DNA of 13,292 nucleotides from a virus, in the UHGV virus genome UHGV-0196552; one strand, given 5' to 3'. Made by a program: the position numbers and the translations under genes. This document shows, one piece after another, positions 2,705-10,008 of this stretch (position 1 is the first letter of the stretch; every line of letters starts with the position of its first letter). The notes under the pieces were generated by a model. The model was given only the letters and a program-made list of their open reading frames with translations, ran no database searches and was not told the DNA's origin.

Positions 2705-3433
2705 ATGAACAGAAAGCAATTCATCCAGTCACACGGAGCTACTTGCAGTAACTGGACGTGGAGTTGGTCATTTGTTAACCATGAAAAGAAGATGGTCATC
2801 TTTGGGTCATGGGATGTTGAGAGTGAACAAGAGCGGTCTGTAATACTCCGGGAGAAATGGGAATACAACTCAAACAACAAAAAACAACCGGGATACACCC
2901 AGGCACTGGAACACATCCGTTTAGCCCATGAAGGCTACGAACTTTACACCTTCAATATGGTTTTCGCAGAACACCCTGAGAATCCTGAAATTGCAGTAAT
3001 CAAGGATTTTGAGCGTAAATTAAACAAGCGATATCTTCGTAAAGAAGGTGTTGTTTGGTATGCAGACTTCTTACCTAATCCATTCCCTGATGAAATTCCT
3101 TCAGGAGAGAGTTTTGTTGAAGGTGCAAAGACTCAAGTAACAGTGAACTACTACGAACGCGATCCAAAGGCCAGACAAGCCTGCATCCAGCATCACGGTA
3201 CTGCCTGTAAATGCTGTGGCTTCGATTTTGAGAAGGTCTATGGTACACATGGCCGTGGGTTCATTCATGTACATCACATCAAGCCGCTTCATACGATTGG
3301 GGAAAACTATGTGGTCAATCCCGTAACAGATATGATCCCATTATGTCCAAACTGCCATGCAATGGTACATCACGGAAGCGAAGTACTTCCAATTGCAGAT
3401 TTGAAAAAGAAAATGACATTCTGGAGCGAGTAA
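2705..3433 (+). CDS. McrA-like HNH nuclease: about 170-aa N-terminal domain of unknown function plus C-terminal HNH (beta-beta-alpha-Me) motif
   Basis: Strong RBS AGGAG 5 nt before ATG 2705. C-terminus contains CKCCGF...GFIHVHHIKPL...LCPNCHAMVHH, the classic Cys-pair, HH, Cys-x2-Cys-His HNH signature as in McrA-type enzymes. N-terminal domain is Trp-rich (WTWSWSF, GSWD). Confidence 0.75.
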   Translation: MNRKQFIQSHGATCSNWTWSWSFVNHEKKMVIFGSWDVESEQERSVILREKWEYNSNNKKQPGYTQALEHIRLAHEGYELYTFNMVFAEHPENPEIAVIKDFERKLNKRYLRKEGVVWYADFLPNPFPDEIPSGESFVEGAKTQVTVNYYERDPKARQACIQHHGTACKCCGFDFEKVYGTHGRGFIHVHHIKPLHTIGENYVVNPVTDMIPLCPNCHAMVHHGSEVLPIADLKKKMTFWSE

Positions 3434-4225
3434 ATGGATTTATCACAATTGAGCAACGTCGAATTGATGCAACTGAATCAGTTGACGCTTGATGAGTTAG
3501 AACGACGAGAGGTTATCAGAACCAGAAACAATCCTATCAGTGAGTACACTGAATGGCTGGTTGCGGATAAGATGCAAATGGTACTGGCTGCACCTAGTAC
3601 TAAAGGGTATGACGCTACAACAACTGACGATCGAAAAATTCAGATTAAGTCTCGTAAGAATAATTTAAAAAACCAATCATTAATTCTTGGGATTATCAGA
3701 AATTATGATCTGAACCAATTCGATGAACTCATTGCCGTAATATATAACCATGATTTCTCAATTCGTTATGCCATATCCATACCACATGAATTAGTGAAGG
3801 AATATGGTTTTTATAATGAGCATCAAAATGGTTACACTTTAAGAATAAGCAATTTATTACTTAACGATCCACGTGTAACAGATATCATTGAATTTATTGA
3901 CCCAGACACTGAACGTTCAAAGGAAGAGATCACGGTGAAGCCAGATTCAAACACTATCCGGGATGTACAGACAATAGGAATGCAGACATTTGTTGAGTAC
4001 TATCAGTATGTTGAAAGTGGTATGAACACAACTGATCTTGTTGAAAAGATGGTAACTGACCATCCAGAATGGAAGGAAAGTACTGCAAGAACTAAGGCAT
4101 CTTCAATGCGAAGAGTATTCAAGAATGGCGACAACATTGAAGTACTAAAAATCATCTATAAGTCGAATCACCCAGCAATAACGCATGAGATTAAGAGTAA
4201 ACTGATGACGCGTTGGGATAAATGA
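3434..4225 (+). CDS. hypothetical protein translationally coupled to the HNH nuclease; N-terminal region has a possible Mrr-like PD-(D/E)xK signature
   Basis: ATG 3434 directly follows the TAA of the upstream gene (3431-3433), with GGAG 8 nt upstream. SEYTEW...KGYD...DDRKIQIKS fits E...D...(Q/E)xK spacing of restriction-endonuclease-fold proteins such as Mrr. This is a weak, motif-only assignment. Confidence 0.5.
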   Translation: MDLSQLSNVELMQLNQLTLDELERREVIRTRNNPISEYTEWLVADKMQMVLAAPSTKGYDATTTDDRKIQIKSRKNNLKNQSLILGIIRNYDLNQFDELIAVIYNHDFSIRYAISIPHELVKEYGFYNEHQNGYTLRISNLLLNDPRVTDIIEFIDPDTERSKEEITVKPDSNTIRDVQTIGMQTFVEYYQYVESGMNTTDLVEKMVTDHPEWKESTARTKASSMRRVFKNGDNIEVLKIIYKSNHPAITHEIKSKLMTRWDK

Positions 4226-4325: not shown

Positions 4326-4637
4326 TCAAAACGGTAATTCTCCCTGCTCATAGAACCATCCATCTTCATCATGCTGCTTATAGACGGCATTCTCAGTACT
4401 CAGATATTGCAAACCTTCCAGTACTGAACTTAGCGGCGTTTCCAGTATGAACACGAAGCAATCACGCTCAATCGTGCCTAACCAGTATGTACCTTGCTGG
4501 TTCTGGAAGAAAACGCGATCCCCATATGAAAACTCATCAAGACTGTATCCCCAATAGCAGACCTTAGCCCATTGGCCTAAATGCTCAAACTGCTGCACCC
4601 CGCGTTTGATTGCCAGATCAAAACCGTTCTTGCCCAT
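4326..4637 (-). CDS. hypothetical small protein (103 aa), Trp/Tyr-rich
   Basis: ATG start with GAGG-type RBS about 9 nt upstream on the minus strand. GC higher than neighbouring AT-rich genes. No family recognised. Confidence 0.5.
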   Translation of the reverse strand: MGKNGFDLAIKRGVQQFEHLGQWAKVCYWGYSLDEFSYGDRVFFQNQQGTYWLGTIERDCFVFILETPLSSVLEGLQYLSTENAVYKQHDEDGWFYEQGELPF

Positions 4638-4743
4638 ACTATGCCTCTACATTAATACTGGTTATCCATACAGTATTGCATCACATTTCGCACAGATCCA
4701 GCCATCAAAATACTTACCACTAAAAACGGTAGAAATGTAATTA

Positions 4744-4813
4744 TCGATCATTTTAATTTGATCAATGGTTAAAAATGATCAATTATCAATCAGTTATGAC
4801 AACTGAGAGATCA
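4744..4813. promoter_or_regulatory. divergent promoter region with clustered GATC sites and TTGATCAA-type palindromes; operator-like
   Basis: Four GATC within about 70 bp (about 4745, 4760, 4777, 4809). Palindrome TTGATCAA at 4758-4765 and related ATGATCAAT at 4775-4783, spaced about 17 bp centre to centre. A DnaA-box-like TTATCCATA lies at 4662-4670. Confidence 0.3.
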
Positions 4814-4815
4814 AC

Positions 4816-5325
4816 ATGAAACTCGAACATTGGGCAATTCCGATCACTTCATTGGACGGTATGTTACTCGGCGTAGAGCTGGAAACCCGTGTACTGATAA
4901 ACGGTTGCCAGGTACTGATGGGGGCAGGAAAAGAAAGTGAATATATCCGTCACGTGGTCTATCAGAACCAGTTAAGAATGATTCAGGGTAAAGCCGCATG
5001 GTTCAAAGAAAAGGGGCTGTTGTGCGTGCTCAGTACTGGCACAGGTACACGCTATGAAGATCTACCATTCATACGGTACATGGCTGCTGAACCACTGCTA
5101 ACGGACGGTTACGACTTAGTTCGACTAAATAGACGGTTCACTGAAGAACACATAGAGCGGCTGATCTTCCCGGTACTCATCAATAACATCATGCAGTACT
5201 GCGACAAGGTGATCGTACAAGTCAGCAGCAATCGAAATCACAGGATTTTACGAGAGTCGGGGGTATGGGCAGTACAGGGAGAGTACAGGCCAATCCGCTT
5301 TGAACAATGCGAACAACTTCTATAG
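4816..5325 (+). CDS. compact, degenerate EAL-like domain protein (probably catalytically inactive c-di-GMP phosphodiesterase homologue)
   Basis: Four EAL-like motifs in the right order: PITSLDGMLLGVELETR (compare YQPIVDL.TG.IVGAEALLRW), LSTGTGTRY (compare DDFGTGYSS, with DD lost), DLVRLNRRF (compare LKIDRSF), VQVSSN...VQGEYRP (compare EGVE...QGY.FSRP, with EGVE lost). Only 169 aa, shorter than a canonical EAL domain. Confidence 0.45.
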   Translation: MKLEHWAIPITSLDGMLLGVELETRVLINGCQVLMGAGKESEYIRHVVYQNQLRMIQGKAAWFKEKGLLCVLSTGTGTRYEDLPFIRYMAAEPLLTDGYDLVRLNRRFTEEHIERLIFPVLINNIMQYCDKVIVQVSSNRNHRILRESGVWAVQGEYRPIRFEQCEQLL

Positions 5326-5335
5326 GGATATAACA

Positions 5336-5608
5336 ATGAAAATACTAATCGTCATGTTGGTAGTACTGCTCACAGGCTGCGGCAGCGTACATCACTCATT
5401 CATGGATAAAGCCTTTGTCGGCAACGTTGATAACAAGGCTACAATAGTACTGTTCGACGCTGGCACACGAAACGGGGTGAAGTACTACCGGCCTCAGTTC
5501 CAGAGTGATTGTGGCCGCACCTACAATCCGATTTACCAGGTGGACAATGGCAGTACTACATGCCATATACGAGAGGAAAGAATTAAAAAAATGCATCAAT
5601 ATAGATAA
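5336..5608 (+). CDS. small lipoprotein (signal peptide with lipobox LTGC); candidate moron or superinfection-exclusion lipoprotein
   Basis: The track ORF 5300-5608 begins with a TTG shown as M. The internal ATG at 5336 has an AGGGA RBS about 7 nt upstream and begins MKILIVMLVVLLTGC, a textbook lipoprotein signal. Mature part has several Cys. Confidence 0.6.
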   Translation: MKILIVMLVVLLTGCGSVHHSFMDKAFVGNVDNKATIVLFDAGTRNGVKYYRPQFQSDCGRTYNPIYQVDNGSTTCHIREERIKKMHQYR

Positions 5609-5688
5609 TAAACAAAAATCAAAGAGATAGAATTATTAAATTATTAAGTGTATGTGGCATGATGAAAAATTAAATAATATATAATACC

Positions 5689-5718
5689 CTCATGCTGTTA
5701 TTGATAAAACAGCATGAG
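5689..5718. terminator. 11-bp perfect inverted repeat hairpin between convergent genes; probable bidirectional terminator
   Basis: CTCATGCTGTT (5689-5699) and AACAGCATGAG (5708-5718) are exact reverse complements with an 8-nt loop. Lies between the lipoprotein gene (ends 5608, +) and the DUF3800 gene (ends 5729, -). Flanks are AT-rich but there is no clean T-run. Confidence 0.4.
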
Positions 5719-5728
5719 AATATATATC

Positions 5729-6883
5729 TCAACGTAGCATGGCTAATGTTCTGGAAATTCTTATTATATCCTTCTCAATATCATCTAAAACAGGAGTTGA
5801 GTTTCTGCTTCGCTCTGCAATTTCTTGCAAAATATATCTATTTAAATGGTTGTTAACATTTTTAGGGTCAAGGTTTTCTGGTGTGGGAACAACACAGCAC
5901 TGCCAATAAAAAATCTCATCTTCAAAATGATTTAGCCATTTAGAATGATATTTTTCTTTCGATTTTTTCTTGTTAAGTACATAAATGCTAGCCGCAGCTA
6001 CCACATCCGCAATTTGTATACCATGCGTGACTTTAGAATCAGAAAGAATCATTGGCTCAGATAGCTTAAATGTGATCGGGATTTTTTTATCATGAAAAGT
6101 CTCGAACACAATCTCATCATTGCCTATCATCTCATTGAATGAGTCCTGATGAGTAATTAATGGTTTTGAGCTGTCGCATATAGCTCTCAATGTACCAAAC
6201 TTACTACTCATATCGCACAGGAGATTATAAAGAGAAGTCGTTGTCAAATCTAATAACCACTTATCAATCCCAGTACCCTCAAGGCCTTCATATTCTTCTT
6301 CAATTATAGAGATGTTATTCTTGGCGAAATCATGAATGTCCATCATAATTTCAGAATTTTTAGAACCAACAACTGGTTCGATAAAACTATTAACCAATAT
6401 TTTACCTCGTGAAAAATCTTCAAATCGCGAATGTAATAGTTCTGAATATTCATCCTTAGCTATTAAAGAAAAATACATTATATTTGAGATGAATAGGTGA
6501 AATTTAAGGTTGTAAAAAATTGAGCTTTTAGCTGCTAATACTGGCTCAAAAATATATTCGAAGAATTTTCCTGAGAGGGCATATTTTTTTTCGTTTACAA
6601 CCACACGCATACGACCACGGAAATGATTAAGTATTTCATCTACGGCTGGTTGAAATCTCTTGCTATTTACGAGAGTGCTACCTTTTAGCTCTTCGGCTGC
6701 GATCGAGTACTTGTTTATTATATAATCAACAAACTGTTTACTTTCCTCATCATCAGTCACGACTGCTGCGTAACTAAAAAAAGGCTGATCTTTTGAAAGT
6801 AAGTTATTACCAGTGAATCCTGATTCATCGAAATATACATTCTTTACCAATTTGGTCATTCCTTTATGAGCTACAATGTGCAT
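5729..6883 (-). CDS. DUF3800-family protein
   Basis: N-terminal VYFDESGFTG and C-terminal HGIQIADVVAAA match the DES and Q-x-x-D motifs I recall for DUF3800. 384 aa, very AT-rich. The start could be the ATG at 6883 or an internal ATG 8 codons downstream; neither has a clean RBS. Confidence 0.65.
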   Translation of the reverse strand: MHIVAHKGMTKLVKNVYFDESGFTGNNLLSKDQPFFSYAAVVTDDEESKQFVDYIINKYSIAAEELKGSTLVNSKRFQPAVDEILNHFRGRMRVVVNEKKYALSGKFFEYIFEPVLAAKSSIFYNLKFHLFISNIMYFSLIAKDEYSELLHSRFEDFSRGKILVNSFIEPVVGSKNSEIMMDIHDFAKNNISIIEEEYEGLEGTGIDKWLLDLTTTSLYNLLCDMSSKFGTLRAICDSSKPLITHQDSFNEMIGNDEIVFETFHDKKIPITFKLSEPMILSDSKVTHGIQIADVVAAASIYVLNKKKSKEKYHSKWLNHFEDEIFYWQCCVVPTPENLDPKNVNNHLNRYILQEIAERSRNSTPVLDDIEKDIIRISRTLAMLR

Positions 6884-6978
6884 GTGCTATTAATATAACA
6901 TTGTAATAATGCTAATGTAAAATAGAATGTAAGTATTTTTAAGCAAGCTAATTAAGTTAAATTACTAATTAAGGTACT

Positions 6979-7060
6979 CCGGCAGCCCAGCTTAGAACGC
7001 GAGTTTTCGGCACCGGATTCTTTAAGTTATGTGTGAAGTTTAGATAGCTTCCCGCACCGC
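6979..7060. other. GC-rich island in an otherwise AT-rich intergenic region; possible cos-like packaging site
   Basis: CGCGAGTTTTCGG (6998-7010) followed by CCGGATTCTTTAAG resembles, from memory, lambda left-end sequence CGCGGGTTTTCGC ... CCGGTTTAAGG. Three related GC-rich repeats: CCGGCAGCCC (6979), CGGCACCGG (7008), CCGCACCGC (7052). Confidence 0.2.
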
Positions 7061-7062
7061 AC

Positions 7063-7626
7063 TTAGCAAAGTACAACACCTATTTCATTTAACGCACAAT
7101 CGCAATGACGGTTTGTCGGACATTCGCATAATTTGAATACTGCATAAGATCCTTTAAGGGTATCGGTTACATACTTGTCCATTTCTTCAACTACAGATGA
7201 TGAGCAATATAAATGAAAACCAACACAGAAAGAATTTCGCATCGGATACTTACATTCTTGTATAGAGTTGAGTTTCAAATGGTCTGCTTGCAATCCTCTT
7301 TTTAAGGCAGATGAACGCTTAGTACATTTCAGCTCAATAAAGATATAGTCTTCAAAAAGGGTATCTTTTTCTCTCATTATTATATCGATTTTTGAGAGCT
7401 TGCTTGCAGGGAAATTATTAGGGTCAAGAAAAGCTGTAACTTCACGTTTAACTTCATATTTTCTTTTTTTGTTAAGGAAGTGCTCAAATTCAATTTGTAG
7501 CCATTTTTCCCAATCATTAGTTTCATTACTGACGAAGGAATACAGACGCCTCTTTATATCTTCATTCTTTAGGAAGCTATTCAGTAACTTTACCAGCAAA
7601 GAAAAATCATTGTTGCGGTCTGACAT
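7063..7626 (-). CDS. PD-(D/E)xK-like nuclease with C-terminal Cys cluster
   Basis: WLQIEFEHF (acidic motif I), KIDIIM (Asp) and IFIELKC (E-x-K) match restriction-endonuclease-fold spacing. C-terminal CECPTNRHCDC (C-x-C-x5-C-x-C) could bind a metal or Fe-S cluster, reminiscent of Cas4/RecB-family nucleases. ATG at 7626, 38 bp from the divergent terS start. Confidence 0.55.
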   Translation of the reverse strand: MSDRNNDFSLLVKLLNSFLKNEDIKRRLYSFVSNETNDWEKWLQIEFEHFLNKKRKYEVKREVTAFLDPNNFPASKLSKIDIIMREKDTLFEDYIFIELKCTKRSSALKRGLQADHLKLNSIQECKYPMRNSFCVGFHLYCSSSVVEEMDKYVTDTLKGSYAVFKLCECPTNRHCDCALNEIGVVLC

Positions 7627-7640
7627 AGTGATCTCAATAA

Positions 7641-10008
<2,368 letters not shown>

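Follow-up and report, generated by a model that had tools for sequence, protein, structure and literature searches.

A prophage gene pair encoding a miniaturised, catalytically degenerate EAL-like protein and a predicted lipoprotein

In the virus genome UHGV-0196552, a stretch of 13,292 nucleotides (nt) which was analyzed at its full length and is called the window here, a gene for a protein resembling a shortened EAL domain (open reading frame 1, ORF1) is followed by a gene for a small lipoprotein (ORF2), and this raises the question of what a temperate phage does with such a pair. To our knowledge, EAL-like proteins that bind FlhD independently of cyclic di-GMP (c-di-GMP), such as YdiV and STM1697, are known only as chromosomal regulators in Salmonella and Escherichia coli. 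The original prediction, which was made from the letters of the sequence, described ORF1 as a degenerate EAL-like protein and proposed for it either binding of c-di-GMP or a protein interaction of the YdiV kind. According to the analysis presented here, ORF1 is with high probability a selected, non-catalytic EAL-fold protein of the STM1697 type, and of the two proposals the protein interaction is favoured. Coordinates of the two genes and of nearby features are collected in Table 1.

ORF1 matches no Pfam family, even at E values up to 1, and in NCBIfam its C-terminal 57 residues match PdeH with 25 bits against a cut-off of 190. When all sequences of the Protein Data Bank (PDB) were searched by phmmer, STM1697 (5HXG) was the single match (E=1.3e-15), and this match comes in two pieces, residues 6-77 of ORF1 to 6-80 of STM1697 and residues 90-169 to 142-223, which points to a large internal deletion in ORF1. 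BLASTP of ORF1 against the STM1697-like protein P0054 gave an E value of 8e-18. A profile of the short family matched STM1697 at 2.5e-29, YdiV reached an E value of just 0.03, and catalytic EAL proteins were absent from its matches. The family profile search detected 61 relatives among 1.84 billion representative proteins; these comprise a handful of short proteins (146-193 amino acids, aa), a few of intermediate length (194-224 aa), and otherwise mainly stand-alone EAL-like proteins of 218-263 aa. Since the Pfam EAL domain (PF00563) is matched by 27 of the 34 aligned relatives and not by ORF1 itself, the homology of ORF1 to EAL is transitive. Judged by these sequence comparisons, the resemblance is beyond chance.

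A structure model of ORF1, predicted by AlphaFold2 from the 34-sequence alignment including full-length EAL-like relatives, has a predicted local distance difference test score (pLDDT) of 93.3 and a predicted template modelling score (pTM) of 0.87. The strands of the model are located at residues 2-11, 17-28, 69-72, 86-90, 101-104, 131-135, and 152-154, and helices are absent between residues 72 and 101. In Foldseek, the top match is the STM1697-FlhD complex (5hxg; E=5e-13, template modelling score 0.77), followed by YdiV (3tlq) and the YdiV-FlhD complex (4es4), and then by catalytic EAL domains. The profile and structure searches which had been proposed as a check of the original prediction have thus returned a predicted TIM-barrel-like EAL fold, and the description of ORF1 as a degenerate, non-catalytic EAL protein of the YdiV kind is borne out; its closest solved structure is STM1697.

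Catalytic positions were mapped via the PdeH-like enzyme row of the alignment. Among the ten catalytic and metal positions, seven are lost in ORF1, and those kept are E21 (the Glu of "EAL"), E92 (the second Glu of ExxE), and Q154 (the Gln of QG). The lost residues are the Asn replaced by S73, the first Glu of ExxE replaced by M89, both Asp of DDFGTG, which are deleted, the Lys replaced by R103, and the glutamates of EGVE replaced by Q135 and S137; in addition, the Gln position of QPI is occupied by I8, and Q154-G155 is kept. It had been noticed originally that the order of the EAL motifs is retained and that the DDFGTG aspartates and EGVE are lost; E21, E92, and Q154-G155 are in place indeed, and the DDFGTG strand turned out to be deleted outright, not just mutated. 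Compared with STM1697 (235 aa), ORF1 (169 aa) has two internal deletions with a total of about 55-60 residues. The helix after the third strand of STM1697 is missing from every member of the short family, and the helix after the fourth strand is also missing, whereas the WLDDLG strand and loop, the equivalent of DDFGTG, are gone only in the 169-aa E. coli clade and are still present in the other short members (175-193 aa). Compared with catalytic EAL domains (PF00563; PdeH, RocR, and YahA/PdeL), ORF1 is about 70 residues shorter and lacks one strand and several helices. On the basis of these residues, ORF1 is predicted to be unable to hydrolyse c-di-GMP, and c-di-GMP binding appears very unlikely because the DDFGTG strand has disappeared entirely, together with the majority of the other ligand and metal positions. 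The c-di-GMP-binder option of the original prediction is therefore disfavoured, and neither STM1697 nor STM1344/YdiV binds or cleaves c-di-GMP (PMC5622320).

Within the 169-aa clade, the ratio of nonsynonymous to synonymous substitution rates (dN/dS) of ORF1 is 0.11-0.20 at dS of 0.13-0.39, and the reading frame is whole in all ten 169-aa loci examined (the window, L001, L009-L012, and L014-L016; L numbers are our designations of prophage loci). The low dN/dS and the intact frames show that the deletion in ORF1 is old and maintained and does not represent decay.

For ORF2, the sensible start is the ATG at 5336, with a product opening MKILIVMLVVLLTGC, and the homologues and the RefSeq annotation of E. 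coli AREA_C483 agree with this start; the TTG at 5300 in the ORF listing is an upstream extension. The gap between ORF1 and ORF2 is 10 nt. The lipobox read from the sequence, MKILIVMLVVLL-T-G-C15, fits the pattern [LVI][ASTVI][GAS]C, and its Cys is nearly invariant in the family. ORF2 is therefore a predicted lipoprotein of the Lgt/LspA type, and the small lipoprotein gene with lipobox LTGC that had been described as following ORF1 is confirmed by these features; the two genes have an operon-like arrangement. The family, which comes from prophages of Enterobacterales, consists of 107 clusters from Escherichia, Klebsiella, Kosakonia, Enterobacter, Pantoea, Citrobacter, Raoultella, and Serratia, all annotated as "hypothetical", and it has no Pfam domain and, in the sequence search, no PDB relative. 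Its conserved core is HSFMDKAxVG...RNGVKYYRPQFQSDC...ST-C-xIR, and the two invariant Cys correspond to C59 and C76 of the window protein, which presumably form a periplasmic disulfide. A C-terminal extension of 30 residues, found in most members of the family alignment, is missing from the window protein. In the family, the residue after the lipidated Cys is Gly, Ser, or Thr and not Asp. Under the Lol rule of E. coli, a residue other than Asp at position +2 leads to outer-membrane sorting, and this location is thus predicted for ORF2. The dN/dS of ORF2 is 0.09-0.21. Among weak matches to PHROG families, the lowest E value (8.6e-6) was obtained for phrog_1754, a family of unknown function. The only deposited phage genome with an ORF2 relative is that of the Escherichia jumbo phage EJP2 (OQ411014.1, 308059-308259), in which a protein annotated as hypothetical has 37% identity over residues 13-90 (E=3e-6).

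Adjacency of an EAL-like gene and a lipoprotein gene was found in related prophages of Escherichia, Klebsiella, Lelliottia, Pseudescherichia, and Pantoea. In seven loci with measured gaps (the window, L001, L002, L004, L006, L009, and L010), the lipoprotein homologue follows the EAL-like gene at 2-13 nt, and the same adjacency, at about 10-13 nt according to gene coordinates, is found in L013 (Klebsiella, with a 175-aa EAL-like protein), L014, and L016. The arrangement is also present in Pantoea (L022/L023), where the EAL-like protein is 22% identical and differently truncated. A variant with 90% identity to ORF1 adjoins a lipoprotein cluster that is indexed in 167 sample blocks.

The window belongs to a temperate phage, and on the 3' side of the pair there are genes for a small terminase of the DUF1441 type, a large terminase of the lambda GpA type, and a lambda-type portal protein, for which Pfam marks were read on the near-identical locus L010. 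The same prophage is present in E. coli AREA_C483 (L001; NZ_CP123310, 2151860-2176662) between yeaG and mipA, adjoining a large serine recombinase, so that the phage-borne nature of the pair, which had been supposed originally, is established by both the prophage location and the terminase and portal context. The AREA_C483 prophage is heavily degraded, since it has taken up insertion sequences of the IS3 and IS5 types and a group II intron, and its large terminase gene is in two parts. Despite this degradation, the EAL-like gene, the lipoprotein gene, and the divergent 103-aa gene listed in Table 1 are all intact, which would agree with the cassette being kept because it benefits the host. The guanine-plus-cytosine (GC) content of the pair is 0.462 against 0.379 for the whole window, as the visibly raised GC noted originally had indicated; 0.5% of equal-sized windows are as high, and the maximum is at 4784. 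The GC content at third codon positions (GC3) is 0.52 in both ORF1 and ORF2, whereas the terminase, portal, and nearby genes have 0.26-0.36, with about 0.30 for the phage genes, and this is consistent with capture from a host-like source. In a DNA search, the region (1.7 kb) was present in one of 5,426 complete E. coli genomes, and no DNA match was obtained in phage and plasmid collections.

The best explanation of these results, to which we assign a probability of about 45% as a whole, is a lysogenic-conversion cassette composed of an STM1697-type FlhD4C2 binder and a surface lipoprotein. The pair would be a small, separately acquired operon ("moron") in the accessory stretch that a temperate phage, integrated at yeaG/mipA in E. 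coli, carries from its serine recombinase to its terminase genes. ORF1 descends from the STM1697 branch of stand-alone EAL-like proteins in the host and has been trimmed. Most likely it acts in the way of STM1697 and would bind a partner via the conserved helix 108-128, the best candidate being the FlhD subunit of FlhD4C2, the master regulator of flagella; in the lysogen, such binding would reduce the expression of flagellar genes. ORF2 would be exported, lipidated at Cys15, and sorted to the outer membrane, where it most plausibly would alter or mask a surface component in the style of superinfection exclusion.

The proposal of FlhD as the target is based on the comparison with the crystal structure of STM1697 bound to FlhD, in which eleven residues make contacts and F160 and L173 are central; the mutants F160A/L173A and L172A/L173A/H176A lose FlhD binding, and STM1697 blocks the recruitment of RNA polymerase by FlhD4C2 (PMC5622320). 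We compared the STM1697 contacts F160, L173, K167, L172, K175, H176, Y180, V147, L136, and positions 115 and 116 with ORF1. Three of them are identical (F160=F108, L173=L121, and Y180=Y128), and three are conservatively replaced (K167 by R115, L172 by V120, and V147 by L95). The most conserved segment of the family, R115-L-I-F-P-V-L-I-x-x-I-x-Q-Y-C-D-K, corresponds to the FlhD-binding helix of STM1697. Since the best-conserved segment is the FlhD-contact helix with F108 and L121, FlhD binding is rated as the most likely mechanism; that ORF1 acts on FlhD4C2 is nevertheless proposed tentatively.

Several observations weigh against this explanation. The polar contacts K175 and H176 are altered to N123 and N124 in ORF1, with most members of the short family keeping Lys at the first of these, and three of the eleven interface positions (115, 116, and 136 of STM1697) lie in the deleted segments of ORF1. 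The aromatic, Leu, and Tyr contact positions are conserved nearly throughout the alignment, including the PdeH-like enzyme row, and therefore may be structural and not specific to FlhD. An ORF1 homologue is encoded by a prophage of Klebsiella pneumoniae. Because K. pneumoniae is usually non-flagellate, FlhD need not be the sole target, or the target at all. The confident structure model leans on full-length relatives, as AlphaFold2 gave an unusable model (pLDDT 48.8) from nine short-family sequences alone. The linkage of the two genes also has exceptions: in L008 the EAL-like gene is followed by a different secreted protein, in L017/L018 the lipoprotein gene is located behind another secreted protein with the EAL-like gene 2.7 kb off, and in Serratia (L020/L021) the lipoprotein gene is alone. 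The pairing of ORF1 and ORF2 is thus strongly preferred and not obligatory, and two independently acting lysogenic-conversion genes therefore fit better than an obligate complex.

The altered and partly deleted interface and the K. pneumoniae homologue can also be accommodated if ORF1 is an EAL-like interaction module with a target other than FlhD, such as a host regulator, a protease adaptor like YdiV/ClpXP, a phage protein, or a partner tied to the lipoprotein. An EAL-like fold with lost catalysis fits this alternative equally well, and so does the tight and widespread linkage to an exported lipoprotein that has no obvious connection with FlhD; we consider it possible but rather unlikely, since the central contacts in the most conserved segment are identical to those of STM1697 and since FlhD is the target of both STM1697 and YdiV, its closest relatives with a characterised function (PMC5622320). 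As another alternative, ORF1 could take up c-di-GMP or a different cyclic (di)nucleotide as a non-catalytic receptor or "sponge" and thereby modulate host signalling or blunt an anti-phage defence based on cyclic nucleotides. The predicted EAL fold, the ExLxR-like E21-L22-x-x-R25, E92, and Q154 kept in the E. coli clade, and the presence of the degenerate EAL c-di-GMP receptors LapD and FimX among the structural matches would suit such a role, which the loss of most ligand positions makes improbable. Decay of a captured EAL-like gene into a functionless remnant, with the pair hitch-hiking, would account for the two internal deletions, the absence of a Pfam match, and the foreign composition. 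This is very improbable in view of the purifying selection on ORF1 and its intact frames, the retention of the gene in the degraded AREA_C483 prophage, and the compact and confident AlphaFold2 model.

The remaining alternative concerns ORF2, for which a role as a lysis component (o-spanin) or as a true exclusion protein of the Cor/Llp type that blocks FhuA has only a small chance of being correct. ORF2 is a small lipoprotein, as those proteins are, and weak PHROG matches were obtained to Cor (phrog_1119, E=0.0024, in 4 of 27 family members) and, for one family member, to an Rz-like spanin (E=0.0043). The identification with Cor was rejected as not significant, with hhalign against N15 Cor giving 20.6% probability, mostly from the signal peptide; furthermore, N15 Cor is located among tail genes, whereas ORF2 is beside terminase genes. 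The phage proteins Cor (phi80, N15, and HK022) and Llp (T5) share with ORF2 the small size, an outer-membrane-type sorting signal, a conserved Cys pair, and a moron-like setting, but significant homology is lacking. The o-spanin was also rejected: ORF2 is flanked by the EAL-like gene and a DUF3800 gene, an overlapping i-spanin gene is lacking, and the mature part is not proline-rich, with 2 Pro in 76 residues. ORF2 does not adjoin a gene for a holin, an endolysin, or an i-spanin, and no lysis gene is present in the window upstream of the terminase genes; in a related prophage, a lysozyme-like gene is located about 8 kb from ORF2, beyond the terminase genes. The possibility raised with the original prediction, that the lipoprotein is a spanin component next to lysis genes, thus finds no support in this neighbourhood.

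Table 1. Positions of the gene pair and of nearby features in the window.
Feature	Position	Strand	Description
Two adjacent genes matching methyl-directed restriction enzymes	2705-4225		Just upstream of ORF1-ORF2; found by PADLOC
103-aa gene	4326..4637	-	phrog_2100 (unknown function); divergent from the pair, in the same GC-rich patch, GC3 0.50
LexA (SOS) box-like palindrome	4656..4675	.	TACTGGTTATCCATACAGTA; exact TACTG-N10-CAGTA, 18 nt upstream of the 103-aa gene start
Operator-like array	4739..4795	.	Three GATC-centred palindromic repeats ((T)GATCAAT), D1, D2, and I1; presumed ORF1-ORF2 promoter region
ORF1	4816..5325	+	169 aa; miniaturised, catalytically degenerate EAL-like protein, STM1697 lineage
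ORF2	5336..5608	+	90 aa; predicted lipoprotein precursor with signal peptide MKILIVMLVVLLTG, lipid-modified Cys15, Gly at +2, Cys 59 and 76
Hairpin	5684..5723	.	16-bp stem; between ORF2 and the convergent DUF3800 gene
384-aa DUF3800 protein gene and 187-aa protein gene	5729-7626	minus	Between the cassette and the terminase genes; phrog_12991 (8.5e-119) for DUF3800, no family match for the 187-aa protein

The intergenic region between the divergent 103-aa gene and ORF1 is 178 bp and carries both the LexA-box-like palindrome and the GATC repeats. TACTG-N10-CAGTA has one match in the window, and since 78 of 200 shuffles have at least one match, it is by itself not beyond chance; the palindrome is kept in four diverged loci (L001, L009, L002, and L006). 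The four GATC sites within 67 bp (4746, 4760, 4777, and 4809) form the densest GATC cluster of the window, whose single motif TGATCAAT occurs no more often than chance would allow. The spacing of the repeats is 14 and 17 bp, and GATC at positions -70, -56, and -39 is seen again in diverged prophage loci. Neither feature is statistically exceptional alone, and both rest on conservation across loci. The palindrome suggests SOS control of the 103-aa gene, and the repeats suggest an operator or a Dam-sensitive promoter of the ORF1-ORF2 operon. In the tblastn search, the 103-aa gene accompanies the pair in synteny in the majority of the related prophages (L001-L003, L006, L007, and L009-L015), with no match in L016, and its protein has no match in the PDB sequence search; it may perhaps be an SOS-induced, antirepressor-type switch beside the cassette. 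The hairpin downstream of ORF2 scores as a terminator on the minus strand, and it is likely to be the end of the ORF1-ORF2 transcript.

The stretch from the serine recombinase to the terminase genes, in which the pair is located, is an accessory island. By PADLOC, a 242-aa HNH protein matches mREase_IV (5e-8) and a 263-aa DUF6998 protein matches mREase_II (1e-62). The two genes make up a defence pair borne by the prophage, and these methyl-directed restriction enzyme neighbours characterise the locus as an accessory or defence island; no PADLOC match was obtained for ORF1, ORF2, the 103-aa gene, the DUF3800 gene, or the 187-aa gene. The DUF3800 and 187-aa genes have a low GC content of 0.34 and are possibly a further accessory or defence module. 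In the Pantoea agglomerans prophage (L022/L023, 5373-7080), three minus-strand genes (mSLOG/DUF4326, DUF488, and DuOB) are located right behind the lipoprotein homologue, and this different accessory module fills the slot of the DUF3800 gene of the window. The large-terminase ORF listed for the window at 8119-10008, which has 629 aa when read from its first ATG, shares 95 nt with the small-terminase gene; since the large terminase is called at 587 aa in the near-identical L010, the true start in the window is probably about 40 codons downstream.

When compared with known systems, ORF1 is homologous to the Salmonella Typhimurium protein STM1697 (PDB 5HXG), an anti-FlhD4C2 factor of the stand-alone EAL-like kind, but falls short of the STM1697/YdiV type in domain completeness (about 235 aa) and retains the FlhD interface in part. 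The helices that follow strands 3 and 4 are absent, as is the DDFGTG-equivalent strand in the E. coli clade; three interface positions are missing and two polar contacts are changed. Another difference is that STM1697 belongs to the chromosomal core, whereas ORF1 is encoded by a prophage in an operon with a lipoprotein gene. The similarity to YdiV of E. coli/STM1344 (3TLQ and 4ES4), which has a full length of 237 aa, is marginal, with 14-18% identity in addition to the high profile E value given above, and the interface residues of YdiV (F155, F168, F181, and A184) are unlike those of STM1697 (PMC5622320). By tblastn against 50,697 phage records, a single match was obtained, which is an unannotated 2-kb Salmonella fragment, and no match to ORF1 was obtained in the viral structure library at E values up to 0.001. 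In a full-text literature search, no paper on a phage-borne YdiV/STM1697-like protein was found; a prophage esterase-like gene that enhances motility (PMC5425062) is unrelated to ORF1.

If ORF1 binds FlhD4C2, this would be a new route of lysogenic conversion, in which a prophage shuts off motility directly at the post-translational level, and such a shut-off would be relevant to phage exclusion, immune evasion, and gut colonisation. In addition, an EAL barrel without a strand and several helices would be shown to stay a selected and folded binding module. A more far-reaching and doubtful version is that a host STM1697-type gene was captured and miniaturised to about 170 aa, giving apparently the first phage-encoded anti-FlhD4C2 factor, in a "receptor-hiding" operon with an outer-membrane lipoprotein. 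In that case, flagella would be turned off from the cytoplasm and an envelope receptor would be masked from outside, so that the lysogen would be shielded from flagellotropic and other superinfecting phages and would expose less flagellin in the gut, and ORF1 would be a minimal EAL-fold scaffold able to bind FlhD. The unannotated lipoprotein family of 107 clusters is a candidate for a new superinfection-exclusion or envelope-modifying function.

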